From NCBI GenBank assembly GCA_017537515.1, contig JAFYKO010000170.1, positions 1,487-65,486 on the forward strand: 64,000 nucleotides of DNA. The letters run 5' to 3'. The notes beneath the pieces were generated by a model that saw only the letters and a program-made list of their open reading frames with translations, ran no database searches and was not told the DNA's origin. The stretch's first letter is position 1; each line of letters begins with the position of its first letter. The position numbers and the translations under genes are program-made. Of the stretch, positions 13,543 to 62,018 are shown in pieces. The stretch comes from Clostridia bacterium (GTDB lineage: Bacteria; Bacillota; Clostridia; Christensenellales; UBA1242).

Positions 13543-13567
13543 GGTAGTGTAGGAGTTTACAATCACG

Positions 13568-13822
13568 ATGGACGATTTTGTTGAAAATGCCGAACTGACC
13601 GTAATGGACGTTGAGTGCTACTTGAACAGCACCGACGCACCCACCGAACTTGACGCAGCGAAACAGCAGGTAAGTGACCTGCGGTGTATGCTGCGTTCTA
13701 CGCACCAGGCTTACACGAAAGCCGTGCAGTCTGCCGAAAAATACCAACTTCTCGCCTTTGTATTTGGCTGTATGGTGGTTACAATCGTAATCTGCACAAT
13801 CCTGGAGGGTCTGCTACAATGA
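13568..13822 (+). CDS. hypothetical protein (84 aa) with a C-terminal TM helix
   Basis: The ORF ends in LLAFVFGCMVVTIVICTILEGL. ATGA overlap with the next gene. Confidence 0.55.
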   Translation: MDDFVENAELTVMDVECYLNSTDAPTELDAAKQQVSDLRCMLRSTHQAYTKAVQSAEKYQLLAFVFGCMVVTIVICTILEGLLQ

Positions 13823-14370
13823 CAAAGGTTAGGCTCAAACGGACGAAACCGAAGAAACCCACTAGCGAGCAGTATCTTGCTGCCGAACTGCCGAAGGTCC
13901 TTAACAAGTTCGTGGGGAAGCGATACACGCTGTCCTCCGCTTCTAAAATGGTTAAGGAAATTCAGCAGGTCATTGTCAGTGCCACTTGCATTCAGCCGAC
14001 CTGGGAAAGCCGTGTCCGTGATATGCAGGCTCAACTTAAAGGCAAGGCTTACCACCTTGACAACGGCATTAACAACGGAATTGTTTTCGTGGAAAATGTC
14101 GGAATATATGACAATACCGACCACGATACCTTGTGTATTGACGGTTTATTTGCTAGATTTACCAAAGACGGGAAAATTAGCGATGTCAGCCCCGTAAGGT
14201 TGGCATACCCCTTATGTTCCACCTGTATTCGTGACGGGAAGTTTAGGACCCACCTAGACGGGCACAATTACCAGGCTTACGAAATCCTTAACGACGAAGA
14301 TTTCAAGAACGCCTTGCAGTGTGCAAAGATAGCCCAAACCCGAATTAGCAGGCGGTTGGAAAACTTTTAA
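13819..14370 (+). CDS. hypothetical protein (183 aa)
   Basis: The start is taken at the ATG at 13819 (MTKVRLKRTK), overlapping the upstream stop. The track start at 13684 lies inside the previous gene. Confidence 0.6.
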   Translation: MTKVRLKRTKPKKPTSEQYLAAELPKVLNKFVGKRYTLSSASKMVKEIQQVIVSATCIQPTWESRVRDMQAQLKGKAYHLDNGINNGIVFVENVGIYDNTDHDTLCIDGLFARFTKDGKISDVSPVRLAYPLCSTCIRDGKFRTHLDGHNYQAYEILNDEDFKNALQCAKIAQTRISRRLENF

Positions 14371-14377
14371 GGATTTT

Positions 14378-14446
14378 GCCCCGCCCTATTTCCTAATCCT
14401 CGGTCGTGGTTGTCTAAAGTGCGGGAAATGGGCGGGGCTTTTTATT
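14378..14446 (+). terminator. GC-rich long-loop hairpin plus T-run
   Basis: GCCCCGCCCTATTTCC (14378-14393) pairs with GGGAAATGGGCGGGGC (14423-14438): 9 GC pairs, a 2-nt mismatch, then 5 pairs. TTTTTATTT follows. Confidence 0.6.
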
Positions 14447-14450
14447 TACT

Positions 14451-14738
14451 ATGCGACTTTACCTAGTTAAACTCAATCACGTAGATTACGACACCTACGA
14501 CGCTGCCGTTATAGCCTGTGAATCCAGGCAGAAGTTGGAACAACTCTTGGAAGACAAGGTGTTTGACAGGGAAACCCAGGACGGGGACTACAAGGGCAGA
14601 AGCGAGCGTGTCCAATACGACTACGACTTTGAAATTGGTCGTTGGCAGAAAGTTGAAGAAATCACAGCGGTCGGATATACCGACCTGGAAACCGACAAGG
14701 AAGCAATAGTTATCCTGGGTTCATTCAACGCAGGATAA
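14451..14738 (+). CDS. hypothetical protein (95 aa)
   Basis: Plus-arm ORF. No motif recognised. Confidence 0.55.
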   Translation: MRLYLVKLNHVDYDTYDAAVIACESRQKLEQLLEDKVFDRETQDGDYKGRSERVQYDYDFEIGRWQKVEEITAVGYTDLETDKEAIVILGSFNAG

Positions 14739-14750
14739 AGGAATACCCTT

Positions 14751-14978
14751 ATGAAGACTATCTACAAGATTACTGAAAGCAGCGGTGTTCGTGGAAACAA
14801 CCTGTTCCGTAAGGAATGGTTCTGTTCCACGAAGAAGTTGGCAGAAGCGTTCAAGGCTGAAAAGGAAAAGTCCGAACAGGTCACGGTAGGCAACGTTCCC
14901 AAGGGGAACGGCTACTGCATCACGCCTGTGGAAGTAATGGACAGCGAAGACGACTTTTACAAGAAGGAACTGCGATAA
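14751..14978 (+). CDS. hypothetical protein (75 aa)
   Basis: Plus-arm ORF. Its stop overlaps the next ATG. Confidence 0.5.
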   Translation: MKTIYKITESSGVRGNNLFRKEWFCSTKKLAEAFKAEKEKSEQVTVGNVPKGNGYCITPVEVMDSEDDFYKKELR

Positions 14979-19191: not shown

Positions 19192-20060
19192 TGATTGAAA
19201 TGCGTCCGTTCTTCACTATCCCGAAGCCCAAGCAGTCGTCGTCAAACTTGCAGAACTGCAAGATACACACTTTGGATTGGGACCAATACTACACGCCCGA
19301 TGACGTGGCTGTGAAGTGCCTACGGGTCATAAAGGACCTGGGGTTGCCCATAACCGAAATGTTTGAAACGTCTGCGGGTATGGGTGCGTTTATCCGTGCG
19401 TCCGCTTCGGTCTTTGCGGGTGTTCCCGTGGAAGCCGTGGATATTGAACCGAAAGCCGACGGGATTAAAAAGGCTGATTTCTTGAACGTCTATATGTCCT
19501 ACAAAAAGGGTAGAATGTTCCTGGGAAATCCCCCGTTCGGTTCCCGTATGTCCCTGGCGACGAAGTTCTTCAAGAAGTGCGTGACGTTCGGGGATTACGT
19601 CGCCTGGATTCTACCCATATCGCAGTTGAACAACAGCCGTTCCCTGTATGAATTTGATTTGGTAGTCAGCCTGGATTTGGGCGAAGTCCTGTTTTCGGAA
19701 CAGAAACCCGTCCGCTGCTGCTTCAATGTCTATAAGCGTCCCGACAGCGGGAACCTTAACCCGCCCCCGACGGACGACTGCAAGTCCGTGAAGTTTATGC
19801 GGTCCGACAACCCCCACTACGCTGCGTTTGATTACGATATTCGTCTTTGCACCTGGGGAGGGTCGTCGGGGAAAATCCTGGAAGACGGGGACGACGACTA
19901 TACGGGGACCTACAAGTTAAAGGTGGTTCCCGAATACCTGGAACGTGTCCTGGAAATCCTGCGGGGCACCGATTGGGAACAGGAACGCCCTAGCGTGTCC
20001 TGCAAGATTATTCCCAAGGGAAATATCGTGGCGGTCCTTAAAAGGAATGGAATACCATAA
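19191..20060 (+). CDS. N6-adenine DNA methyltransferase (gamma-type motif order)
   Basis: ETSAGMGAF (motif I, FxGxG-like) lies upstream of FLGNPPFG (motif IV, NPPF). Confidence 0.7.
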   Translation: MIEMRPFFTIPKPKQSSSNLQNCKIHTLDWDQYYTPDDVAVKCLRVIKDLGLPITEMFETSAGMGAFIRASASVFAGVPVEAVDIEPKADGIKKADFLNVYMSYKKGRMFLGNPPFGSRMSLATKFFKKCVTFGDYVAWILPISQLNNSRSLYEFDLVVSLDLGEVLFSEQKPVRCCFNVYKRPDSGNLNPPPTDDCKSVKFMRSDNPHYAAFDYDIRLCTWGGSSGKILEDGDDDYTGTYKLKVVPEYLERVLEILRGTDWEQERPSVSCKIIPKGNIVAVLKRNGIP

Positions 20061-20254
20061 TGGATGTGCCTGTATGCCACAAGTGTAAGAAGCCTATCCC
20101 GTTCGGGGCTGCGTCCAAGGTTGAAATAACCCTGGACGAAAAGACGACGTTGTGTTATTGGATGTGCAGTTCTTGTTTGCGTAGCGGGTTACGGGGGCAC
20201 GGACAAAACCATAGATTTCAATGCGAGGAACCTTATGACTACTACTTCTTCTAA
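20060..20254 (+). CDS. small zinc-ribbon protein (64 aa)
   Basis: CHKCKKPIPFG...CSSC. Paralogue of the next small ORF. Confidence 0.5.
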   Translation: MDVPVCHKCKKPIPFGAASKVEITLDEKTTLCYWMCSSCLRSGLRGHGQNHRFQCEEPYDYYFF

Positions 20255-20411
20255 AAAGACCAGGTGTTGCGAACAATGTAAGAAACCCGTCCCCGATGGC
20301 TACGGGGTAGCAGCCGAACTGACAGTTGACGGCAAGACCGCCAAAAAGGTCCTTTACTGCGTGGATTGTGCAAGGCAGGTCATTGAATCGCTTGCACAGC
20401 AGCAACAATAA
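20235..20411 (+). CDS. small zinc-ribbon protein (58 aa), paralogue of 20060..20254
   Basis: Below the track cutoff. My translation: MTTTSSKKTRCCEQCKKPVPDGYGVAAELTVDGKTAKKVLYCVDCARQVIESLAQQQQ. GAGGAA lies 5 nt upstream. Confidence 0.5.
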   Translation: MTTTSSKKTRCCEQCKKPVPDGYGVAAELTVDGKTAKKVLYCVDCARQVIESLAQQQQ

Positions 20412-20429
20412 ACGCTATCCGACTATATA
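20412..20429 (+). promoter_or_regulatory. class-II motif ACGCTATCCGACTATATA, 5 nt before a start codon
   Basis: Same core as 13522, 46990 and 48901. The ATG at 20435 follows TATATA after CTATT, with no SD. Confidence 0.5.
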
Positions 20430-20434
20430 CTATT

Positions 20435-21742
20435 ATGATAACGAAGATTAAATTGCATAACTTTCAGTGCCACAAGGACCTGGAATTGGACCTTGGGCGT
20501 TCCACCGTATTGCAGGGTGGTTCCAACCACGGAAAGACAGCCGTCCTACGTGCATTCTATTGGGTCCTGTTCAATGATGCTCCGCACGACTTTGTGTCCT
20601 ATTGGGCACAGAAGAAAACCAAAAAGGGCTTCACTTTCAAGGACGACGAATACACGTCCGTCACTATCGTTGTGGACGGGCACGTTGTAGAACGCAAGCG
20701 TTCCAACACGTTCAACGGCTATATCGTTGACGATACCATTTACGAAGCACTCCGAACAGACGTGCCCGAAGCGGTCACGAAGTTATTCAACCTGGCAGAC
20801 GCTTCGGTGCAGAAGCAGTTTGACGCTCCGTTCCTGCTCGCCACGACACCTGGCGAAGCGTCTAAATACTTGAACGAACTTGCGGGGCTTGAATGCGTGG
20901 ACGGCATTCTAACGCTCGCAAAGCGTAAGGTTGCCGACACGTCCGACCTGGTAAACACGGCAAAGGAAACCGTTGAAAGCCTGGAAAAGTCCGTCGGGTC
21001 TTTCAGTTGGGTAAAGGAAGCCGAAGCCCTGTATGAAAAGGCACAGGCTACGCAGCCGAAGATTGAAGAACTTACCCGTAAGTTGGAAGCACTCAACCGC
21101 ACCATTTCCGACTACAAGGCTATCAAGAACTATCCCGAAATCCCCGATTGGCTTGAAAACGGGGACAAGTCCGCAGTGATTAAGGGCTTGGAAAAGGAAC
21201 TTGAAATCTGCAACAACTACGTGGGCACCTGCCGTGTTCTCTCACGTGTGAACCCCGCCCTGGAAAAGTTGAACGCCCTGGTGTTCCCAAAACCGCCCAA
21301 GCATACCGAAAAGGAACTTGAAGCCCTGTCGGGTTCTATTGAAAAATACGGTAAAGTCGTGTCCAACTATCGCAGGTGCAGGTCCGTATTGAACGCCCTG
21401 GACGACTTGCAGGAACCGAAGCCGTGCAAGTGGGAGGGTCGCTTGCGTCCGCTTGTGCAGTCTATCCGAAACTACGAAGAAGTCACGGAAATCCTGGGTT
21501 CTGCAAGCACCGCCCTTGACAAGATTTCAAAACTCAAGGCTCCGAAGCCGTGCAAGTGGACCGAAAAGGATTTTGAAACCCTGGTCCGCTCCATACGGAA
21601 TTACAGCAGTGCAAAATCCACGATTTCCGACTGCAACGATTACCTGGACGACGCTTACAGCGATTTGGAGGGTGTAGCCTGCCCCGTCTGCGGTCGCCCG
21701 CTTACCCGACGTGACATTTTGCTGTATGTAAGCAAAATATAA
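20435..21742 (+). CDS. Rad50/SbcC-like ATPase, N-terminal half (Walker A + coiled coil + terminal CxxC zinc hook)
   Basis: MITKIKLHNFQCHKDLELDLGRSTVLQGGSNHGKTAVL (SMC/Rad50 N-terminus with P-loop), followed by long helical repeats. The ORF ends in GVACPVCGRPL. Confidence 0.7.
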   Translation: MITKIKLHNFQCHKDLELDLGRSTVLQGGSNHGKTAVLRAFYWVLFNDAPHDFVSYWAQKKTKKGFTFKDDEYTSVTIVVDGHVVERKRSNTFNGYIVDDTIYEALRTDVPEAVTKLFNLADASVQKQFDAPFLLATTPGEASKYLNELAGLECVDGILTLAKRKVADTSDLVNTAKETVESLEKSVGSFSWVKEAEALYEKAQATQPKIEELTRKLEALNRTISDYKAIKNYPEIPDWLENGDKSAVIKGLEKELEICNNYVGTCRVLSRVNPALEKLNALVFPKPPKHTEKELEALSGSIEKYGKVVSNYRRCRSVLNALDDLQEPKPCKWEGRLRPLVQSIRNYEEVTEILGSASTALDKISKLKAPKPCKWTEKDFETLVRSIRNYSSAKSTISDCNDYLDDAYSDLEGVACPVCGRPLTRRDILLYVSKI

Positions 21743-43443: not shown

Positions 43444-43772
43444 CCGCCCTGCATAGGGATATTTGTAAAATCCGTTCTTCCCAATGGCGTAGCCCGACTA
43501 ACGTGAGGACCTGGTTCTACGCTCTCCCGTGGGGGTCCTTGATTTGGTATCACGGCAAGGTTATTCGTGAAATGCAGCGTCGCAAGTGGAAGCCGTCCGC
43601 TGTGTGGTTTGACCCGCTGTATCGTGGTAAAATGCTGCCTATGGCTTCCACGCTTACCGAAGCGGACCTGTCACGAAAGAAATTGGGCGACATTTTCCTT
43701 AAAACCTGCCCTATTCCCCAGGACAAGTTTGAACAAATGTTGCAGAAGTGGAAATCCGCAAAGGGTGTATAA
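43392..43772 (+). CDS. pyrimidine-dimer DNA glycosylase-like protein (Pyr_excise/TIGR02328-like)
   Basis: MQLWHPNLLPELPDRLLTALHRDICKIR matches the MRLWH..LIP.LP...LL..HRE N-terminal signature of that family. Confidence 0.5.
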   Translation: MQLWHPNLLPELPDRLLTALHRDICKIRSSQWRSPTNVRTWFYALPWGSLIWYHGKVIREMQRRKWKPSAVWFDPLYRGKMLPMASTLTEADLSRKKLGDIFLKTCPIPQDKFEQMLQKWKSAKGV

Positions 43773-44827
43773 TGGCTGACAACGCTAACACCCTTTTACC
43801 CAAGTTGAACGAATGGCTGAAAGACGTGGGCGTATCTGCCCGTGTCGTCGTTCGTGGTAAGGACCTGCTTGAAATCCGCTTGGAAACCCAAGACCTGTTC
43901 ACGGAGCAATTCGCTGCTCCCAGGCGTTTGCCTGTTGTCCGAACTCACGCAACCGTGCGTGAGAACCGCCCGAAGCCCGCACCGAAGCCCAAGGTGGAAG
44001 AACCCAAGCGTGGCTTCAATCTGCACCTGGTCGCCCACAAGGATAGTATGTCCGATGCCGATTTAAGCAGGCTTCACGAACTCACGCAGTCCTATTCGTT
44101 CTTGTCCGCTACGAAGTTGAACAGCAAGGTATGGGAAACTACCTGCCGTGAAGTCGTTTGGCTCGCAACGGGTTTCTTTGTGGATTCGCATAAGTGGGAC
44201 AAGAAGTGGATGGCGAAGACGGAACAAAAGGGTGGTGGTCCCGCTCTCTTAAAGGGCAGGTTTACCGACATTCCGTCTGCGATAGACACCATTGAAAAAT
44301 GCCTGGACTATGTGGAAAACGCTCACAGGACTAGCGGGTATTGGTTCCCGCCCCTGGAAAACGGAAAGATACCCCGCAAGTCGCTTGCGTCCTTTATCTG
44401 TTCGCAGACAAAGGCGGGCACTGAATGGAGTCCGTTTTGCGAGGTCCTGTGGGAAATGAACAAGGACACCGCCATTAAATCATCGCTCCCGAAATTGGCT
44501 ATCAATGCTGCGGAACTCGCCATAAAGGATTCGGAATACCTGCGGGGTATGCCGTCGTCTTCTATGGCGAACTATTGGAATGGCGTTAAGAAATTCGTGG
44601 ATTGGTATTATGCCAATCGTGATATGCTTATGTCTGTCGTGGATAACAGGGTCCGTCTAGCCGACGTTGGTATGGCTGTGACGCTTGTCAAGGAATGGAA
44701 CGCTTCTGCAAACGGCAAGGTGCTTCCCGTGTCCTTTATCTACCCTGGCAGCGACAGGTGGTTCCGTTTTGTGCAGTGGTGCAAGACGAACAGAAATGTG
44801 ACAATCCCCGATTATAGGAATGGTTGA
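43772..44827 (+). CDS. hypothetical protein (351 aa)
   Basis: The ATG at 43772 overlaps the upstream TAA by 1 nt. No motif recognised. Confidence 0.6.
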   Translation: MADNANTLLPKLNEWLKDVGVSARVVVRGKDLLEIRLETQDLFTEQFAAPRRLPVVRTHATVRENRPKPAPKPKVEEPKRGFNLHLVAHKDSMSDADLSRLHELTQSYSFLSATKLNSKVWETTCREVVWLATGFFVDSHKWDKKWMAKTEQKGGGPALLKGRFTDIPSAIDTIEKCLDYVENAHRTSGYWFPPLENGKIPRKSLASFICSQTKAGTEWSPFCEVLWEMNKDTAIKSSLPKLAINAAELAIKDSEYLRGMPSSSMANYWNGVKKFVDWYYANRDMLMSVVDNRVRLADVGMAVTLVKEWNASANGKVLPVSFIYPGSDRWFRFVQWCKTNRNVTIPDYRNG

Positions 44828-50175: not shown

Positions 50176-52869
50176 ATGGGCTTTTTCAAGATACCCGCTG
50201 CCATTCAAGCGATGTCAGCGAAGCCGAAACTGACAGGCTGTCTAGCCTGTGGATTGGACCAATCGGGCAAGGAATTACCCTTTGCAGGGGACGGTAAGGA
50301 CAAGGTTTTAATTCTGTGCGACCACCCCCGTGGAACGGAAGGCAACGACCACGACACCGTGTTCCTGCACAAGATGTATGATTATCTTTGGGACTTGCAG
50401 GGCAAGCGTGGACTGCCCAGGGACTTTTTGGAGTCTGCCTGGATTGGCTACGTTATCCCGTGCCCCTGCAACAAGGAAAACGGCAAGGACCCCAAGCCCG
50501 ACTGCTGCAAGGAACGCTTGGATAGACTCATTAACGAATTGAAGCCGTCCGTTATCATTCCTATGGGTCCCGCTGCTATCCAGGCTCTTATTTGGGACCG
50601 AATGAGCGGGCGTATCGGAAACACGAAGCCGTCTGACCTTTACGGCAAACGCATTCCCGACCGCCACTATAATTGTTGGATTTGCCCGACATACTCCCCC
50701 GAATTTTTGACGTGGCAGAAAGACGACGACAAGTGCCCGTATATGTATTTTTCGCAGCATATTCGTCTTGCCTATCAAATCAAAGATACCCCGCTGCCGA
50801 AAATCCCGACGGACGTTCGCACCACGGGCGACGCTGAAACTGCTGCCGATTGGATTGAAGAAATTATTGAATGGGCTGAAACGGACCAACTTGACAAGGC
50901 TCCCGAAGGCTATCACGACGTTGCGATTGACTACGAAACCACAGGTCTTAAACCACACCGTGAGGGTCATTCTATCAAGGCTGCGTCTGTGGGCTACCGC
51001 AAGGACGGGGAATACCACGCTATCGGTATTTGGTGGGACGGGGACAACGAACGCCTGGTAAACGCCTGGTATAAACTCACGCACCACGATAAAATCGGTA
51101 TGGTCGCACACAAGGCTGACTACGAAGCCTGTTGGACCAGGTTTAGAGCGGGTCTGCATAACACCCGCACCGATTGGATTGATAATTGGTCCTGGGACAC
51201 TTGCCTGGGTGCCCACGTCCTTGACAACTCCCAAAAGGTCGGATTGAAGTTCCACACCTATTGCGAATTGGGTGTTATCGGCTACGACAATAAAGCAGAC
51301 CATTTCATTACGACCCTTATGGACGGGGAAGACCCCAAGAGTTGCAACGCCTTTAACCTGCTCAAAAAGGGTATGGGTGTTCCCAAGGGCGACATTATCT
51401 ACTATTGCGGGCTAGACTCCATTTATACGATTGCCCTGCGTGACATTCAGTCCGCACAAATGATTGGGCTTGAAAAGCCGTTCCGCTTCTTTATGCAGGG
51501 TATGGACGCACTCGCCCGTGTGCAGTCCGAGGGTCTGCCGATTGATTACGGCAGGATTAACGACTTGCAGAATGAACTTGAAACCAAATACAAGGAATCC
51601 GAAGAAGCCGTCAAGAACACGGACGAAGCGAAGCAGTGGTGCCGTCAGCACCCAGGCGAAACGTTCAACCCGCTCTCTAACAAACAGATTGCCGAAGTGC
51701 TTTACAAGATTTGCGGATTGAAACCGCCATCGGGTAAAGAAGACGCAACGGGCGACACCCTGGAAAAGTTGGGCACCCCGTTCTGTAAGGCTATCCTGGG
51801 TATGCGACGTTGGGCGAAGATTATGGACTTCCTGGACGGCTACAAGCGTGAAGCCGTGTGGGACGAAGAAAAGCAGGCATATCTTATTCGCCCGTTCTTC
51901 AACCTGTCAACGGGTGCGGGCGGTGATGCCGATGCGGGTCCCCGAACCTATCGTAGTTCGGCTGACAGCCCCAACTTCCAAAATATCCCGAAGCGGGATA
52001 AAGAAATGAAGAAAATCCTGCGAACCTTGTTTGTCGCTCCAAAGGGCTACCGCTTTATGGAAATGGACTACAAGAGCCTGGAAGTTATGGTGTCCGCAAG
52101 TTATCATCACGACCCGCAAATGATACATTACTTGCAGAATCCCGCTTCGGATATGCACCGTGACACTGCCTGCGATATGTATATCCGAAAGCCCGAAGAA
52201 CTGACAAAGGAAGAACGTTCCACCATTAAGGCGGGCTATGTGTTTTCGTCCTTCTATGGTGCGTCCTACAAGTCGTGTGCCCGAAATATGTGGAACAATA
52301 TGCCAAAATATACAAAGGAACACTTGGCAAAGGACCACAGGATTACCACTTACGAAAAGTGGGAAGCACACGTCAAAAAAGGCGATGATATTTTTTGGAA
52401 CCAACGCTTTAAGGTTTACAACGCTTGGCGTAGAACTGAATGGGACAGTTATCAAAAAATGGGCTACGTGCAGTCCTACACGGGTTTCCGCTGCCTGGGA
52501 CCTATGGGCTACACGCAGGCTACGAACTGCTGCATTCAAGGTTCCGCATTCCATATCCTGTTGAAAGCCCTTACCTATGACTTGAAAGATTTCAAGGCAC
52601 AAGGCTTGCAGTCTTGCATTATCGGGCAGATTCACGACGCTATCATTTCGCTTGTCAAGGAAGGCGAAGAAGACAAGGTGGCAAAGATTATCTATGGTAA
52701 TGGCGTGAAGCGTGTCAGCAAGGAATTTCCGTGGATTTGCGTTCCGCTTGTGATTGAAGCCGACGCTTCTGCCGTGGATGGGTCCTGGGCTAAAATGACC
52801 GAAGTGGGTGCCCTGTGTGACGAGGGTATGCCAGAAAATTGGCAGGCAAAGTTTGAGGAAGCCCATTGA
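50176..52869 (+). CDS. polA: family-A DNA polymerase with 3'-5' exonuclease and an N-terminal UDG-superfamily (family-4-like) domain
   Basis: UDG-like segment (aa ~35-140): GDGKDKVLILCDHPRGTEG...VIPCPCN...KPSVIIPMGPAAIQAL. Exo I: VAIDYETTGL. Pol motif A: MEMDYKSLEVMV. Motif B: RSTIKAGYVFSSFYGAS. Motif C: IGQIHDAI. Confidence 0.9.
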   Translation: MGFFKIPAAIQAMSAKPKLTGCLACGLDQSGKELPFAGDGKDKVLILCDHPRGTEGNDHDTVFLHKMYDYLWDLQGKRGLPRDFLESAWIGYVIPCPCNKENGKDPKPDCCKERLDRLINELKPSVIIPMGPAAIQALIWDRMSGRIGNTKPSDLYGKRIPDRHYNCWICPTYSPEFLTWQKDDDKCPYMYFSQHIRLAYQIKDTPLPKIPTDVRTTGDAETAADWIEEIIEWAETDQLDKAPEGYHDVAIDYETTGLKPHREGHSIKAASVGYRKDGEYHAIGIWWDGDNERLVNAWYKLTHHDKIGMVAHKADYEACWTRFRAGLHNTRTDWIDNWSWDTCLGAHVLDNSQKVGLKFHTYCELGVIGYDNKADHFITTLMDGEDPKSCNAFNLLKKGMGVPKGDIIYYCGLDSIYTIALRDIQSAQMIGLEKPFRFFMQGMDALARVQSEGLPIDYGRINDLQNELETKYKESEEAVKNTDEAKQWCRQHPGETFNPLSNKQIAEVLYKICGLKPPSGKEDATGDTLEKLGTPFCKAILGMRRWAKIMDFLDGYKREAVWDEEKQAYLIRPFFNLSTGAGGDADAGPRTYRSSADSPNFQNIPKRDKEMKKILRTLFVAPKGYRFMEMDYKSLEVMVSASYHHDPQMIHYLQNPASDMHRDTACDMYIRKPEELTKEERSTIKAGYVFSSFYGASYKSCARNMWNNMPKYTKEHLAKDHRITTYEKWEAHVKKGDDIFWNQRFKVYNAWRRTEWDSYQKMGYVQSYTGFRCLGPMGYTQATNCCIQGSAFHILLKALTYDLKDFKAQGLQSCIIGQIHDAIISLVKEGEEDKVAKIIYGNGVKRVSKEFPWICVPLVIEADASAVDGSWAKMTEVGALCDEGMPENWQAKFEEAH

Positions 52870-52870
52870 T

Positions 52871-53512
52871 ATGGATTTGAAAGATACAGTCAATTATGAA
52901 AATGGGGTTATTTGTGATTTGTATAACCAAGGTTATACGTTACGGCACATAGGCGAAAAATTAAATAGGGACCACCATTATGTTAAACGAAGATTGCTTG
53001 AAAATAACATACCGATTGTAAGCAGAAAAACAAAGAAACCTTATACAGAGGAACATCGCAGAAAAATATCGTTGACTAGTAAAGGCAGGGTTCCGTGGTC
53101 TAGGGGTAAACATATGTCCCGTGAGTGTAATCTAAAAAATATGCTTACACATTTAAGGTATTCTGTTGACTATGAATGGCTTAATTCATTTGAAGATATA
53201 GAAAAATTAAAGTTTCTTAATAGGGCTATATCTAGGAAAAGGGACTGCATAGGGTTCACTACCGAAGATTATAAAGCATTTATAGCAAAATTTTACAACG
53301 ACCCTAAATTTAATGAATTATATGCTAAATGGCTAAAAACAAAAGATAAATGGATTAAGCCATCGTTAGACCATATAATTGCAAAATCCGACGGTGGTAG
53401 CCTAACTATTGAGAATTTACGATTCATTAGTTGGTTTGAAAACCGTGCAAAAGAGTCTATATCTTGTGAGAAATGGGAGCAAATGAAGAAAAACATTAAA
53501 TACTACCTATGA
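52871..53512 (+). CDS. HNH homing endonuclease (N-terminal HTH + NUMOD3-like + C-terminal HNH), AT-rich
   Basis: YTEEHRRKISLTSKGRVPW (NUMOD3-like). PSLDHIIAKSDGGSLTIENLRFISWFENRAK (HNH). The ATG is 2 nt after the polymerase stop. Confidence 0.75.
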   Translation: MDLKDTVNYENGVICDLYNQGYTLRHIGEKLNRDHHYVKRRLLENNIPIVSRKTKKPYTEEHRRKISLTSKGRVPWSRGKHMSRECNLKNMLTHLRYSVDYEWLNSFEDIEKLKFLNRAISRKRDCIGFTTEDYKAFIAKFYNDPKFNELYAKWLKTKDKWIKPSLDHIIAKSDGGSLTIENLRFISWFENRAKESISCEKWEQMKKNIKYYL

Positions 53513-55232: not shown

Positions 55233-55305
55233 GGACGTGTAGCACAATGGTTGGTGCGACGGACTCATAACCCGTTGGTTGCAGGTTCAAGTCCTGTCAC
55301 GTCCA
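55233..55305 (+). tRNA. tRNA with CAU anticodon (elongator Met or lysidine-modified Ile2 type)
   Basis: Hand fold, 73 nt. Acceptor GGACGTG/CACGTCC, T8. D arm GCAC-AATGGTTG-GTGC. Anticodon arm ACGGA-CTCATAA-CCCGT with an A31-C39 mismatch. Variable loop TGGTT. T arm GCAGG-TTCAAGT-CCTGT. Discriminator A. No encoded CCA. The G1-C72 pair argues against an initiator. Confidence 0.85.
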
Positions 55306-55859: not shown

Positions 55860-55979
55860 TTGACGCTATGTTGCTATATTGAATTAACGCCCCTGTGGGA
55901 TTCTCCGTCCCTATGGGGCAAGTGAACAGTGAACAGAAATAAACAGCAAACAGCAAACTAAAACAAATAGGAGTCCAAT
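55860..55979 (+). promoter_or_regulatory. class-II promoter motif plus a long structured/CA-rich 5' leader of the SSB-like gene
   Basis: TTGACGCTATGTTGCTATATT (55860-80). Then hairpin GCCCC-TGT-GGGA...TCCC-TAT-GGGGC. Then GTGAACA x2 and AAACAGC x2 repeats. Then AATAGGAG before the ATG. Confidence 0.5.
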
Positions 55980-58865: not shown

Positions 58866-59075
58866 ATGGATATTCTACAATTTTGGAAAAAACTGAACGC
58901 TATCGTGAAAACACGCACCCCTATGGATTCTGCACGTAAAATGGTTGAGTCGGGCGAAATCACGAAAGAAGAAGTGTCCTGGGCACTTGCAGCGTTGGCT
59001 ACCTTACCGATTACTATGCTTGAAACTTTGAGCGACAAGGAAAAGTATAAACGTGGAATTGAACAAACTCTATAA
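58866..59075 (+). CDS. hypothetical protein (69 aa)
   Basis: Plus-arm ORF. Overlaps the methyltransferase GTG start by 23 nt. Confidence 0.45.
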   Translation: MDILQFWKKLNAIVKTRTPMDSARKMVESGEITKEEVSWALAALATLPITMLETLSDKEKYKRGIEQTL

Positions 59076-59737
59076 TATGGATTGCCTGGAATATATGTCC
59101 AGGCTTGAAGACAACTGCGTGGATTTGGTTCTTACAGATATTCCGTATGACGAATGTTCCGATAGGGAAGAGGGCGGGCTGCGTCACATTAACAAGGACA
59201 CTGCCGACGTGCTTACGTTCCCCTTGGGAAAATTTATGGACGAAGTAATCCGTATCTGTAAGGGAAGTATTTATATTTTTTTGCGGAACCGAACAGGTTT
59301 CTACGCTGCGTAAAGCGGGCGTTGACAAGGGTCTTTCTACCCGCCTTTGCATTTGGGAAAAGACTAACCCATCGCCAATGAACGGGCAACACCTGTGGCT
59401 GTCTTCGGTGGAATGCTGCGTGTTTATGCGTAAGTCTAACGCCACGTTCAATGAGTTCTGCCAATCCCCCGTGTGGCGACTCCCCTGTGGGTCTAGTAAG
59501 CGACACCCCACTGAAAAGCCCCTGGAATTGTTTAGACGGCTTGTAAGGGCTAGTTCCAATCACGGGGACATTGTGTTTGACCCTTGCATTGGAAGCGGAA
59601 CCACCGCAGAAGCAGCCGTGTTGGAAGGACGAAAGTTTATCGGGACCGAATTGTGTAAAGAATACTACGACGTTGCCAACAAACGTCTGCGACACCTTAC
59701 GGGTCCGTTCTATCTGTTCGGCAACATTGGAGTATAA
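59053..59737 (+). pseudogene. beta-class DNA methyltransferase paralogue, frameshifted at a T7 run (59276-59282)
   Basis: Frame A: VELNKLYNMDCLEYM...LVLTDIPY...GSIYIF, then a stop at 59311-13. Frame B continues CGTEQVSTLRKAGVDKGLSTRLCIWEKTNPSPMNGQ...HPTEKP...FDPCIGSGTT...LTGPFYLFGNIGV. Removing one T joins the two frames. Both ends align with the 23736..24584 methyltransferase. Confidence 0.8.
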
Positions 59738-59739
59738 CA

Positions 59740-60045
59740 ATGAAAGACGAAACCAAAAAAGTAATTGCCCTTTTGAAAGATGCGTGTCTTGACGTAGAAG
59801 ACGCTGAAACGTTCCTGGGCGACTGCGTGACGGACGAAACCCGTGACGATATTGTGGTCTATTACTTTGACGATTGCGACAGTATGACGTTCTATTACTA
59901 CCTGCACCCCGTCGGGGACGGCAAGTGGGAAGCAAAGAACGGGACTGCCGACGTTGACAACAACGTGATAGCCGAAGCAGACCTGGTGGCGTTCGCACGT
60001 GAACAGCAAGAGGACTATGACGCATACCATAACACGCTGACATAG
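59740..60045 (+). CDS. hypothetical acidic protein (101 aa)
   Basis: The ATG is 2 nt after the methyltransferase stop. Confidence 0.55.
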   Translation: MKDETKKVIALLKDACLDVEDAETFLGDCVTDETRDDIVVYYFDDCDSMTFYYYLHPVGDGKWEAKNGTADVDNNVIAEADLVAFAREQQEDYDAYHNTLT

Positions 60046-60064
60046 CCCCAGGCTACTTTCAAGT

Positions 60065-60085
60065 TTGACGCTATCTTTCTATATT
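60065..60085 (+). promoter_or_regulatory. class-II motif TTGACGCTATCTTTCTATATT driving a non-coding transcript
   Basis: TTGACG, 9 nt, TATATT. No ORF follows for ~260 nt. Confidence 0.5.
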
Positions 60086-60092
60086 ATAATTA

Positions 60093-60278
60093 CGGCACCT
60101 GGGTGGATAGGCGGGTAGGGTGGTTGCAAACGTCCTGCTTGCCGATAAGGGTGGACCTTCGCCATAAATGACAAGCCTTTTGCAAAAGGATTGTGCTGTC
60201 CGAAATTGGTAATAGATTCCGAAGCCCGTAGTAGGAAGTTCCCTTTTTCGGCTACTAGGTCGGTTCTAGCGGGTGCTG
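60093..60278 (+). ncRNA. candidate structured RNA 'element A' (~186 nt), family unknown
   Basis: Starts ~7 nt after the -10. Terminal helix CGGCACC (60093-99) pairs with GGTGCTG (60272-78). Internal hairpins: CCTTT-TGCA-AAAGG and TAGTAG...CTACTA. A U-rich tail follows. Shares four collinear blocks with element B. Confidence 0.4.
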
Positions 60279-60344
60279 TTATTTCTCAAATCTACGTGAG
60301 GTGCGATTACAATCTTTGCTATATTTATAGTAGCGAGGTATGCT

Positions 60345-61217
60345 ATGTATGAGTGCATTTATTGTAAGCAGCCATTTTCATCCGCAAGAGAAAAAGGCTA
60401 TCATCAGCGGTATTGTAAATTATCACCCTATTATGAAAAGCGTAAACTTGCGTTTCAATTAGCGGGTAAGAAAACTTCCGAAAACAATAAAGGTAAACAT
60501 TGGGTGCCTAGAACTCTTTATACGTTTACTTGTGAAAAATGTGGGATGTCTTTTAGTAAAGAATTAACAGACACACAGCGACGTAAAATGACACATTTCT
60601 TTTGTTCCAGGAAGTGTGCAAATAGTCGGAATAAGTCGGAATCAACTAAAAATAAAGTAAGTATGACCTTAAAGATTAGGGCATTTTTGAAAAAGACGGG
60701 TGAATCCGTATTTACAGGGTTCCATCCATTAAATACTTGTCGTAATTGCGGGGTTGAAATAAGCCGACGGGCTACATATTGTATTAAATGTTTCAAAAAA
60801 TGTATGGAATATACAGATAGCACAAGACTAAAATTGAGAGCAGCAGGGCTAAAGGCTGCTATGGCGAATGCTGAAAGTAAAAGGTCACTTAATGAAATAG
60901 AGTTCTGTAAAAAGTGTGAAACTACGTTCAAGTCAGTAAAGCATAATGAAGCATTGTTTAATGGATGGGACGCAGATATTATTATAGAAGACTATAAACT
61001 TGCTATCTTGTGGAATGGGGCGTGGCATTACAAGAAAATAAAGGAAAACCAATCCCTTTCTCAAATTCAAAATAGAGATAGCATAAAATTAAAAGAAATA
61101 CAGGCGTGTGGATATATTCCTTATGTAATAAAAGATATGGGTAAGGCTAATAAAGATAAAGTGGAAAGAGAGTTTGATGAACTATTAAATTTCATAAAAA
61201 GGCTTGATAGTAAATAA
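60345..61217 (+). CDS. AT-rich Cys-rich protein with a C-terminal endonuclease-like (PD-(D/E)xK / Vsr-DUF559-like) region; probable free-standing homing endonuclease
   Basis: Multiple CxxC pairs (CIYC, CEKC, CRNC, CIKC, CKKC). C-terminus reads GWDADIIIEDYKLAILWNGAWHYKK. Own promoter TGCTATATT (60317-25) and a GAGG SD. Composition is unlike the flanks. Confidence 0.4.
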   Translation: MYECIYCKQPFSSAREKGYHQRYCKLSPYYEKRKLAFQLAGKKTSENNKGKHWVPRTLYTFTCEKCGMSFSKELTDTQRRKMTHFFCSRKCANSRNKSESTKNKVSMTLKIRAFLKKTGESVFTGFHPLNTCRNCGVEISRRATYCIKCFKKCMEYTDSTRLKLRAAGLKAAMANAESKRSLNEIEFCKKCETTFKSVKHNEALFNGWDADIIIEDYKLAILWNGAWHYKKIKENQSLSQIQNRDSIKLKEIQACGYIPYVIKDMGKANKDKVEREFDELLNFIKRLDSK

Positions 61218-61257
61218 GTAATTACTAATTTTACGTTTGTAAAACGCCACAGGTGGC

Positions 61258-61464
61258 GAAACGAACCTGGGAGGTTGTGCGGTTTCCTAATTAAAAACGC
61301 TCCGATAAGGCTCCCGTCGGACCCAGGGGCTTCACGGGAACCGCAACCGTGGCTAATGGCAAGTGACCTGTAGGACTCTTGCGGGGGAAGTTCCCCACGG
61401 GACGTTGCACTAGATTGAAGTGCAGAATAGCCCCAACGAAAAGAGTAGGGTCGCTTTTGTGGTA
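61258..61464 (+). ncRNA. candidate structured RNA 'element B' (~200 nt), related to element A
   Basis: GC-rich with no ORF. Interleaved helices CCTGGG (61266-71)/CCCAGG (61322-27) and GGTTGTGCGGTTTCC (61273-87)/GGGAACCGCAACC (61336-48) form a pseudoknot-like arrangement. Also CCGTGG/CCACGG and the GGGGA-AGT-TCCCC hairpin. Confidence 0.4.
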
Positions 61465-61504
61465 GGGCAGGTTGATTGCAACGACCTGCCCGCTTTCATT
61501 TTAT
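61465..61504 (+). terminator. rho-independent terminator closing the endonuclease/ncRNA unit
   Basis: GGGCAGGT (61465-72) pairs with ACCTGCCC (61484-91). GCTTTCATTTT follows. Confidence 0.7.
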
Positions 61505-61525
61505 TAAAAATTTTTACTTTTCCTA

Positions 61526-61601
61526 TTGACAGACGCTAGATAATTAGTTATATTTATGGTGTAAAGAGAACAACCACTCACTACAACCGAGGTATAACTC
61601 T
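61526..61601 (+). promoter_or_regulatory. promoter/leader cassette (hairpin arms degenerate in this copy)
   Basis: TTGACA (61526-31), 17 nt, TATATT (61549-54). Leader: TATGGTGTAAAGAGAACAACCACTCACTACAACCGAGGTATAACTCT, then ATG. Confidence 0.65.
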
Positions 61602-62018
61602 ATGGCAGATACAGCCTTTGTCTTTAAGCAAGCAATCGTCACGTTCTATCGCAAGTCTAACAAGCAGAACACACCCCCCGAAGATATGTGGTGTAAGGTT
61701 TGCGACAATGAAACGTCGCTGTCCACTGTGTTGGAAATGGAAATAGGCGAATACCTTGACAAGATTTCAGCAGCCAAGAGTGAAATTATGAAACTTATTA
61801 CGGGTGGCTTGAACCTGTTTAGCCCCTCTCCCGCAGGCGTATCGGGGATGCACTATCAAAACCAATCCATTACGGTAAGTTGCGGGTATAGCGTGGAATT
61901 GAAGTATTGGCGAACCCTTAACGGGGTCATTATCCGAATTAACCGAACTGACGGGGATGCCGATGTGAACTATTTGACTATCCTTGTAAAGTCCATCTAC
62001 GAAAAAAAGGAAGACTAA
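61602..62018 (+). CDS. hypothetical protein (138 aa)
   Basis: ATG after the cassette's SD. Confidence 0.6.
   Translation: MADTAFVFKQAIVTFYRKSNKQNTPPEDMWCKVCDNETSLSTVLEMEIGEYLDKISAAKSEIMKLITGGLNLFSPSPAGVSGMHYQNQSITVSCGYSVELKYWRTLNGVIIRINRTDGDADVNYLTILVKSIYEKKED

Follow-up and report, generated by a model that had tools for sequence, protein, structure and literature searches.

In the 64,000-nucleotide stretch of DNA analysed here (the window), which derives from a metagenomic phage, a rumen jumbo phage, two non-coding RNAs, RNA A and RNA B, flank an open reading frame (ORF) for a 290-aa protein. RNA A and the 3′ module of RNA B are structured RNAs, the protein adopts a Vsr-like nuclease fold in its predicted model, and the slot between the two RNAs is variable among related phages, in which it is empty, holds a tRNA-Met gene or holds an endonuclease cassette. 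We regard the locus, with a probability of about 0.7, as a phage stable-RNA operon of two structured RNAs into which a Vsr-like homing endonuclease has been inserted, because the arrangement parallels the tRNA region of phage T4 with its endonuclease SegB. Transcription, processing, homing activity and RNA function are what we infer from the features described below. The related phage contigs are labelled with L-numbers (L004, L006, L168 and so on), and some of them were fetched via the UvsX gene.

The fold of RNA A, helices P1 to P6, is supported by strong covariation. RNAalifold predicted 57 pairs from four RNA A sequences, 14 of them with compensatory changes, and across P1–P6 92.3% of the alignment cells were paired and 16 of 58 pairs were doubly changed, compared with 2–7 in slid controls. 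A degenerate motif scan added a diverged copy in L175, the closing helix of which is wholly different (GCGUCUG/CGGACGC) and which scores 145 bits with covariance model R1; when this copy is included, 28 of the 58 pairs are compensatory (3–11 in slid controls). Model R1 recovers all RNA A copies at E<1e-35. The helix CGGCACC (60093–60099)/GGTGCTG (60272–60278), by which an earlier sequence-only reading of the window had the first RNA stretch close on itself, is real and corresponds to the covarying closing helix P1. G–U pairs, counted from the pair table, make up about 16% of the RNA A cells; these pairs would be mismatches on the other strand, and the + strand is therefore the folded one.

In RNA B, the conserved structure is a three-way junction at the 3′ side. 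Among seven distinct variants of this 3′ module, 88% of the cells are paired and 8 of 16 pairs are compensatory, against 1–4 in slid controls. For both RNA A and this module, then, the homologues with compensatory base changes that the sequence-only reading had proposed to look for were found. Covariance model R2 of the 3′ module finds exactly one copy per positive locus, and with this model no further copy was detected in the window and none at all in the L009, L012, L166 and L172 lineages. The 5′ domain of RNA B is variable. The complementary segments for interleaved, pseudoknot-like helices that had been described in the second stretch are present, but too conserved for covariation to be informative: two alternative structures were counted, and 1 of 29 candidate pseudoknot pairs is compensatory. 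Part of the domain is deleted in L169, where about 30 nt are gone and with them the CCGATAAGG block and one strand, the 3′ one, of a candidate pseudoknot helix. The two RNAs also occur independently: RNA A is found without RNA B in L165 and L175, and B-type RNA without RNA A in L008, L010 and L011. While L008 and L011 each have one B-type unit, L010 has nothing but a tRNA-Met gene and the RNA B 3′ module.

Comparison of related phages reveals that the endonuclease gene is part of a discrete insertion. The cassette is absent from L006, L170, L004 and L168. When both RNA flanks were searched by BLAST against the UvsX-fetched relatives, they were adjacent in L006/L007, and in L170/L171 they are contiguous and lie directly after a different upstream gene. 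In L004, alignments place a tRNA-Met gene in the approximately 80 nt between the flanks. Likewise, L168 reads GGGTGCTGTTAAATTTCT, tRNA-Met and AAACGCC in this order, and in L169, which has the same backbone as L168, these very junctions enclose the endonuclease cassette instead; the cassette junctions were set by comparing L168 with L169 and by aligning the window with its relatives. The check on relatives without the ORF, which the sequence-only reading had suggested, thereby yielded both contiguous flanks (L006, L170/L171) and flanks separated by tRNA-Met (L004, L168). In L165, a 63%-identical endonuclease homologue occupies the same position after a diverged RNA A, and RNA B is missing. The identical endonuclease ORF is present on 16 contigs. 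The GC content of the inserted cassette is 0.34, compared with 0.51 in the RNA A flank, 0.56 in the RNA B flank (both ORF-poor) and 0.48 in the whole window, in agreement with the earlier description of GC-rich, ORF-free stretches around an AT-rich, Cys-rich gene. Presence/absence polymorphism among close relatives and foreign base composition (0.34 versus 0.48) together mark the gene as that of a probable free-standing homing endonuclease. The earlier proposal of tandem phage non-coding RNA genes invaded by a homing endonuclease is largely upheld by the ORF-less alleles and the Vsr-like domain, but its claim that the two RNAs are paralogous is not.

The protein encoded by the cassette belongs to a large and almost unannotated family. 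We found 819 homologues at E≤1e-3; the 120 best of these carry almost no Pfam annotation, and the few that have a source name are called "hypothetical protein". Conservation is high in the C-terminal 110 residues, which include RRSKNE, FNGWDADIIIED, ILWNGxWHY and QNRD motifs, with D209/D211, W227-H228 and R244-D245 invariant across 32 homologues. By the motif correspondence in PMC2677866, the positions equivalent to Asp51, Trp68-His69 and Asp97 of Vsr are conserved. The AlphaFold (AF2) model has a pLDDT of 88, and its top Foldseek match is Escherichia coli Vsr (1cw0_A/1vsr; probability 1.0; target TM-score 0.53–0.56). The modelled protein thus combines the Vsr-like (EDxHD) fold with the catalytic Asp, His and Asp and the Phe/Trp wedge. 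A search of PDB sequences gave a marginal profile match to I-Bth0305I (3r3p_A; E 0.2 over 40 residues), a single-sequence search gave no match to this characterised Vsr-like endonuclease, and Pfam and PHROGs returned no family above threshold for the endonuclease and its neighbours. Zinc-finger profiles matched in the N-terminal half.

Homologues of the endonuclease are also found among tRNA genes. In three other jumbo phages (L014–L016), they lie inside arrays of 18–19 tRNA genes, and another homologue adjoins tRNA-Met. Moreover, the L166 homologue replaces a degenerate tRNA-like sequence of L012 in a different RNA-rich spacer. This spacer (L012 12440–12830) follows a sigma-like gene and contains long hairpins in addition to the degenerate tRNA-like sequence. 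At the same spot in L166 (3760–5110), the homologue, which is 55% identical, precedes another structured stretch, in which an ACUCUC/GAGAG stem is found. The RNA-rich spacer of L012 and L166 is matched by neither R1 nor R2.

Table 1. Positions in the window of the RNA modules, the inserted cassette and the putative transcription signals
Feature	Position	Strand	Description and basis
Putative phage-specific promoter motif TTGACGCTATCTTTCTATATT	60065–60085	+	Recurring motif class, also kept in L004 and L006
RNA A, about 190 nt, P1–P6	60092–60279	+	RNAalifold, pair counts, covariance model R1
RNA A P1, closing/acceptor-like helix	60092–60101 with 60270–60279	+	
RNA A P2	60102–60107 with 60158–60163	+	
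RNA A P3 hairpin	60110–60143	+	UUGCAA at 60124–60129
RNA A P4 hairpin	60171–60194	+	UUGCAA at 60180–60185
RNA A P5 long hairpin	60198–60252	+	Conserved 13-nt loop GAAGCCCGUAGUA at 60221–60233
RNA A P6 T-arm-like hairpin	60255–60269	+	
Putative homing-endonuclease cassette	60288–61241	+	CTATATT promoter-like box (60319–60325), GAGG ribosome-binding site, ORF, 24-nt tail
290-aa protein	60345–61217	+	N-terminal Cys-rich zinc-finger/ribbon modules; C-terminal Vsr-like domain, residues about 180–265
RNA B	61242–61504	+	5′ domain, 3′ three-way junction, terminator
RNA B 5′ domain	61242–61367	+	Small 5′ hairpin and candidate pseudoknot helices; alignments
RNA B 3′ module	61368–61449	+	Three-way junction: closing stem ACUCUU/AAGAGU, two hairpins, flanking GUAGGA motifs
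Intrinsic terminator	61465–61504	+	10-bp stem, UUGCAA in the loop (61476–61481), then U tract; terminator scan

RNA A has tRNA-like ends. The hairpin adjoining the 3′ strand of P1 consists of a 4–5-bp stem and a 7-nt loop, and its T-arm-like stem covaries (CUAG/CUAG, CCGA/UCGG, CUGG/CCAG and CCUG/CAGG). In L170 (UUCGAAU) and L175 (UUCGAUU), the loop is a canonical T loop of the 7-nt UUCRANY type and the arm abuts the P1 3′ strand, as in the acceptor/T-arm part of a tRNA, and T-like loops are also present in L006 (UCCGAUU) and L165 (UGCGAAC). In addition, an invariant UG follows the P1 5′ strand, like U8 and R9 of tRNA, and the helices P2/P3, P4, P5 and P6 follow one another around the junction as the D arm, anticodon arm, long variable arm and T arm do in a tRNA. 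When 378 kb were searched with model R1, only two genuine tRNA-Glu genes in unrelated phages were matched outside the family, and the alignment with tRNA-Glu runs through the acceptor and T arm (P1 and P6). RNA A is not a tRNA; judged by these sequence features, it is most likely the expanded descendant of a tRNA gene.

A second observation concerns the surroundings of RNA A in L175, where three aberrant tRNA-like genes stand side by side on the − strand (1249–1693) with RNA A in the middle. The first scores 37 bits on the Rfam tRNA model and has canonical D and T arms, with 58 nt replacing the anticodon arm, and the third is called by ARAGORN as a 91-nt tRNA-Phe(aaa).

The ends of RNA A also invite comparison with tmRNA and the Y RNA-like YrlA, the tRNA-like domains of which likewise have an acceptor-like helix stacked on a T arm and the rest of the molecule inserted between the D side and the T arm. 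However, RNA A matches neither the tmRNA nor the YrlA model of Rfam. Identity as tmRNA was dropped since RNA A has no conserved tag frame, no G3–U70 and no ARAGORN tmRNA call: the candidate tag frames, by our own reading, differ between the window, L006 and L165, and the acceptor pairs run C–G, G–U, G–C and so on. It had been suggested by a resemblance of the RNA A 3′ end to that of E. coli tmRNA. No Ro or SmpB gene was found among the window proteins scanned, which make up less than half of the window ORFs.

The sequence-only reading had taken four collinear blocks shared by RNA A and RNA B as a sign of paralogy. The blocks are present where they were described, but they do not significantly exceed chance: of 300 dinucleotide-shuffled controls, 26 contained a collinear chain of at least four 9-mers with at most one mismatch (p about 0.09). 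Model R1 reaches at best 11.6 bits (E 0.65) on RNA B, and on these sequence comparisons the paralogy is unproven. The GGAAGUUCC block forms one strand of a long hairpin in RNA A and a self-contained hairpin in RNA B. The P3 hairpin of RNA A and the terminator hairpin of RNA B share GGUAGGG..UUGCAA..CCUGC, a match that is not collinear with the four blocks. The palindrome UUGCAA is invariant in three loops, those of P3 and P4 in RNA A and that of the RNA B terminator, and three of the 20 TTGCAA occurrences in 64 kb are in hairpin loops of this element of about 500 nt. Such self-complementary loops could mediate RNA–RNA contacts. All phages with RNA A have GAUUGCAAC as their terminator-loop sequence (window 61473–61483), and in L008 (3920–3935) and L011, which have no RNA A, it is GAUUACAAC (UUACAA), with self-complementarity lost. 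There are hints, from two lineages only, that the terminator loop may contact RNA A.

Putative transcription signals bracket the element. The motif class TTGACRCTAT-N4-CTATAT has six + strand copies in the window (13522, 48901, 50117, 53543, 55860 and 60065), five of which lie shortly upstream of a listed ORF start, the polymerase gene among them, and it may represent a phage-specific promoter class. A generic sigma-70 scan gives no score to the motif upstream of RNA A because its spacer is too short. Both signals named in the sequence-only reading were recovered: its class-II promoter motif belongs to this recurring class and is kept in the sister phages, and its terminator was found by a terminator scan. 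In L006, the terminator stem shows a compensatory A–U to G–C change. Of the promoter motif, the endonuclease cassette has just the TTTGCTATATT half, as do its homologues in L165 and L166. Downstream of another of these special promoter motifs, a GC-rich hairpin, GCCCCTGTGGGATTCTCCGTCCCTATGGGGC, and then CAGNGAACAG-type repeats lie in the 5′ leader of the gp32-like gene (window 55880–55920).

Neither RNA corresponds to a family in Rfam 15, in keeping with the earlier failure to match them by eye to tRNA, tmRNA, 6S or SRP RNA. At the gathering threshold, the whole window yields only a single tRNA-Met (55233–55305), and at E≤10 nothing credible was found in 59900–61700 or in the uninterrupted alleles L008, L006 and L170. 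ARAGORN reports no tRNA or tmRNA in the RNA A/RNA B region. Resemblances to RNase P, SRP, 6S and riboswitch RNAs that had been seen by eye have no Rfam support, and the omega-RNA of nearby TnpB genes was rejected as a candidate, RNA A and RNA B having no similarity to the rest of L001 or to the TnpB flanks. BLAST in near and distant modes against 50,697 deposited phage genomes (INPHARED) gave no match to either RNA. Exact and degenerate motif scans of IMG/VR, metagenome contigs and GTDB genomes gave genuine matches only in a clade of phages of about 215 kb and in L175, all other matches being chance ones inside coding sequence. No equivalent RNA was found described in the literature.

Several points weigh against the interpretation as a stable-RNA operon with a tRNA-like RNA A. 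The T-like loop of the window itself, GUCGGUU, is degenerate and non-canonical. RNA A has no 7-nt anticodon-type loop, the P4 loop being a 6–8-nt UUGCAA loop, and neither ARAGORN nor the Rfam tRNA model reports a tRNA at RNA A in the window, L165 or L170. The covariation comes from six or seven distinct sequences only, and the alignment that includes L175 leans toward the structure because it was fitted to model R1. The RNA family is limited to a single clade of phages of rumen type, about 215 kb in size, and the locus is dispensable, since some members of the clade (L009, L172 and L012) have no such RNAs.

Rather than two RNAs, RNA A and RNA B might be two domains of a single large RNA, about 470 nt long and similar in kind to GOLLD or ROOL, in which the gap is a linker that tolerates a tRNA or a mobile gene and the three UUGCAA loops drive self-assembly by kissing. 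We consider this unlikely. A single promoter and a single terminator surround both modules with no terminator after RNA A, three of only 20 TTGCAA in 64 kb fall in hairpin loops of the element, and the terminator loop reads UUACAA in the two B-type units of L008 and L011, which stand without RNA A. Moreover, GOLLD and ROOL are likewise phage RNAs near tRNA islands, with tRNAs sometimes in the linker of GOLLD and kissing loops in its cages (PMC12286853). However, no GOLLD or ROOL match appears at E≤10 on the uninterrupted alleles, each RNA occurs without the other (RNA A in L165 and L175; B-type RNA in L008, L010 and L011), and the tRNA-like ends of RNA A point to its excision as a separate piece. 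Because the UUGCAA loops are invariant, kissing contacts cannot draw support from covariation.

The structured RNA on both sides of an endonuclease ORF might also be read as the halves of a self-splicing intron or twin-ribozyme carrying its own homing-endonuclease ORF, as the sequence-only reading had considered, and Vsr-like endonucleases are known within group I introns (PMC2677866, PMC3239194). This is very improbable here: no host gene is split, the upstream ORF ending at 60045 and the next gene having its own promoter; no group I, group II, GIR1 or ribozyme match was found at E≤10; and ORF-less alleles retain both RNAs with no gene restored, a tRNA gene can take the place of the ORF and each flank also occurs alone. 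It is just as hard to credit that the RNAs are cofactors, guides or antitoxins forming one system with the nuclease. They are physically linked to it in the window, L169 and L165, and TnpB with its omega-RNA offers a precedent for phage nucleases using adjacent RNAs, with TnpB genes a few kb downstream. But this further suggestion of the sequence-only reading is contradicted by RNAs without the nuclease in L004, L006, L008, L010, L011, L168, L170 and L175 and by nuclease homologues in tRNA arrays without these RNAs; in addition, the base composition of the cassette is foreign to the locus, and, by its zinc-finger profile matches, the nuclease has its own multi-zinc-finger DNA-binding region. 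The position of the locus at the end of the replication/recombination module and the TTGCAA palindromes, which could be protein-binding sites, would suit hairpins that act as DNA, for example in a replication origin, packaging site or recombination hotspot. We give this little credence, given that the G–U wobbles are workable on the + strand only, that the element has a dedicated promoter and an intrinsic terminator, and that it has a tRNA-type T loop and can hold a tRNA gene within the same transcription unit.

The closest analogue of the proposed stable-RNA operon with its inserted endonuclease is the tRNA cluster of T4; GOLLD and ROOL are looser parallels. Besides tRNAs, the T4 region carries two other stable RNAs (species I and II) and SegB, a free-standing endonuclease that recognises tRNA genes by their T-loop sequence and promotes the inheritance of its own locus (PMC2330249; see also PMC13096335). 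Both loci combine stable phage RNAs, including non-tRNA RNAs of unassigned role, that are co-transcribed in T4 and presumably so here, and both have a free-standing endonuclease gene between RNA genes. Like SegB, the endonuclease is missing from the homologous locus of sister phages that differ in tRNA content (PMC2330249). However, SegB is a GIY-YIG enzyme, whereas the enzyme here is Vsr-like with zinc fingers and presumably homes; the present cluster is tiny, consisting of a single tRNA-like RNA, a second RNA and no more than one tRNA; and its RNAs share no detectable sequence with the INPHARED phages.

With Vsr-like (EDxHD) endonucleases such as I-Bth0305I, the protein shares the Vsr-type fold (by Foldseek) and the Asp, Trp-His and Asp positions, and it resembles them in being free-standing and, by its distribution, mobile in phage genomes (PMC2677866, PMC3239194). 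It differs in that the profile match to 3r3p is only marginal and there is no Pfam match, that zinc-finger/ribbon modules take the place of NUMOD3 helices at the N terminus, and that the family members seen in this analysis reside in RNA-gene clusters, not in inteins or introns. As for GOLLD, its 5′ region is variable and its 3′ region conserved, tRNAs are sometimes found in the linker, and kissing loops hold the cages (PMC12286853). RNA B likewise has a conserved 3′ part and a variable 5′ part. The element is, like GOLLD and ROOL, phage-encoded, elaborately structured and near tRNA genes, with a tRNA possible inside the locus; its palindromic loops, of which only the presence is read from the sequence, could form kissing contacts (PMC12286853), and rumen samples are a source of ROOL as well. 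Compared with these RNAs, it is smaller (190 nt and 250 nt) and its two parts occur independently, and the GOLLD and ROOL covariance models gave no match at E≤10 on L006 12230–12740 and L170 3255–3735.

The RNA locus stands at the end of a T4-like replication/recombination module with genes for primase, DnaB, PolA, clamp loader, a gp32-like protein and UvsX, and the gene 3′ of RNA B has its own canonical promoter at 61526 by the sigma-70 scan. Related phage contigs are about 213–223 kb in size. Upstream of RNA A, an N6/N4 DNA methylase gene (59053–59737) is broken into ORFs of 86 and 119 aa; in tblastn with the intact 227-aa methylase of L169, residues 1–76 align in one frame and 75–228 in another, and the reading frame thus shifts near 59280. 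L168 and L169 have another methylase gene (247 aa) that the window lacks. NUMOD3 and HNH motifs are present in an ORF (52808–53512) overlapping the PolA gene at its 3′ end, which probably makes this ORF a second homing endonuclease of the free-standing kind within the replication module. The SNF2-type helicase ORF at 44824–46995 matches an intein-splicing domain at residues 259–302, and the ORF preceding it (43748–44827; 359 aa) has no Pfam match; the helicase gene may contain an intein or be fractured. Just past the 3′ end of the window and less than 10 kb downstream of the element, L001 carries two TnpB (OrfB_IS605/Cas12f-like) genes at 13565–14803 and 19479–20693.

Taken as a stable-RNA operon with a homing endonuclease, the locus would work as follows. 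One promoter and one terminator would bracket the two RNA modules. The ends of RNA A, together with the adjoining 7-nt-loop hairpin, would copy the acceptor/T-arm "top half" of tRNA, and RNA A would be matured like a tRNA, with RNase P forming its 5′ end and RNase Z its 3′ end, to which CCA would be added. RNA B would be an RNA unrelated to RNA A, with the three-way junction near the terminator as its conserved part. The Vsr-like nuclease would cut endonuclease-less alleles of the locus in co-infecting relatives, and recombinational repair would copy the cassette in, displacing the tRNA, as SegB does in the T4 tRNA cluster. Our best guess is that RNA A mimics tRNA and thereby engages the machinery that binds tRNAs; it might, for instance, be a decoy for host defences directed at tRNAs. 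We prefer this function in view of its conserved acceptor/T-arm end and of the genes found beside RNA A.

Overall, the locus is a solid lead and not a breakthrough, given its narrow distribution in one rumen phage clade and its dispensability. Two well-supported structured RNAs absent from Rfam 15 join the short list of phage non-coding RNAs. The analysis also suggests an evolutionary route in which a tRNA gene may expand to a 190-nt RNA that keeps only the acceptor/T-arm end, a route illustrated by the several aberrant tRNA-like genes side by side in L175. Phage tRNAs are known to act against host defences that cleave tRNAs, and loci of this kind are amplified by SegB (PMC13096335), which makes tRNA mimics in the same slot plausible candidates for an anti-defence role. 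The endonuclease family, with its more than 800 unannotated proteins, is now assigned to the Vsr-like fold, and since some of its members lie in phage tRNA arrays, there is a concrete hypothesis for their target. It is a speculative and rather doubtful extension that RNA A, with or without RNA B, represents a new class of phage effector RNA, either a tRNA-derived decoy or a UUGCAA kissing-loop particle, and that the endonuclease family is specialised for tRNA arrays. If so, the effector would be a miniature counterpart of GOLLD and ROOL or a mimic that blocks tRNA-targeting defences, and the Vsr/zinc-finger endonucleases would constitute a previously unrecognised homing system for arrays of tRNA and tRNA-like genes.

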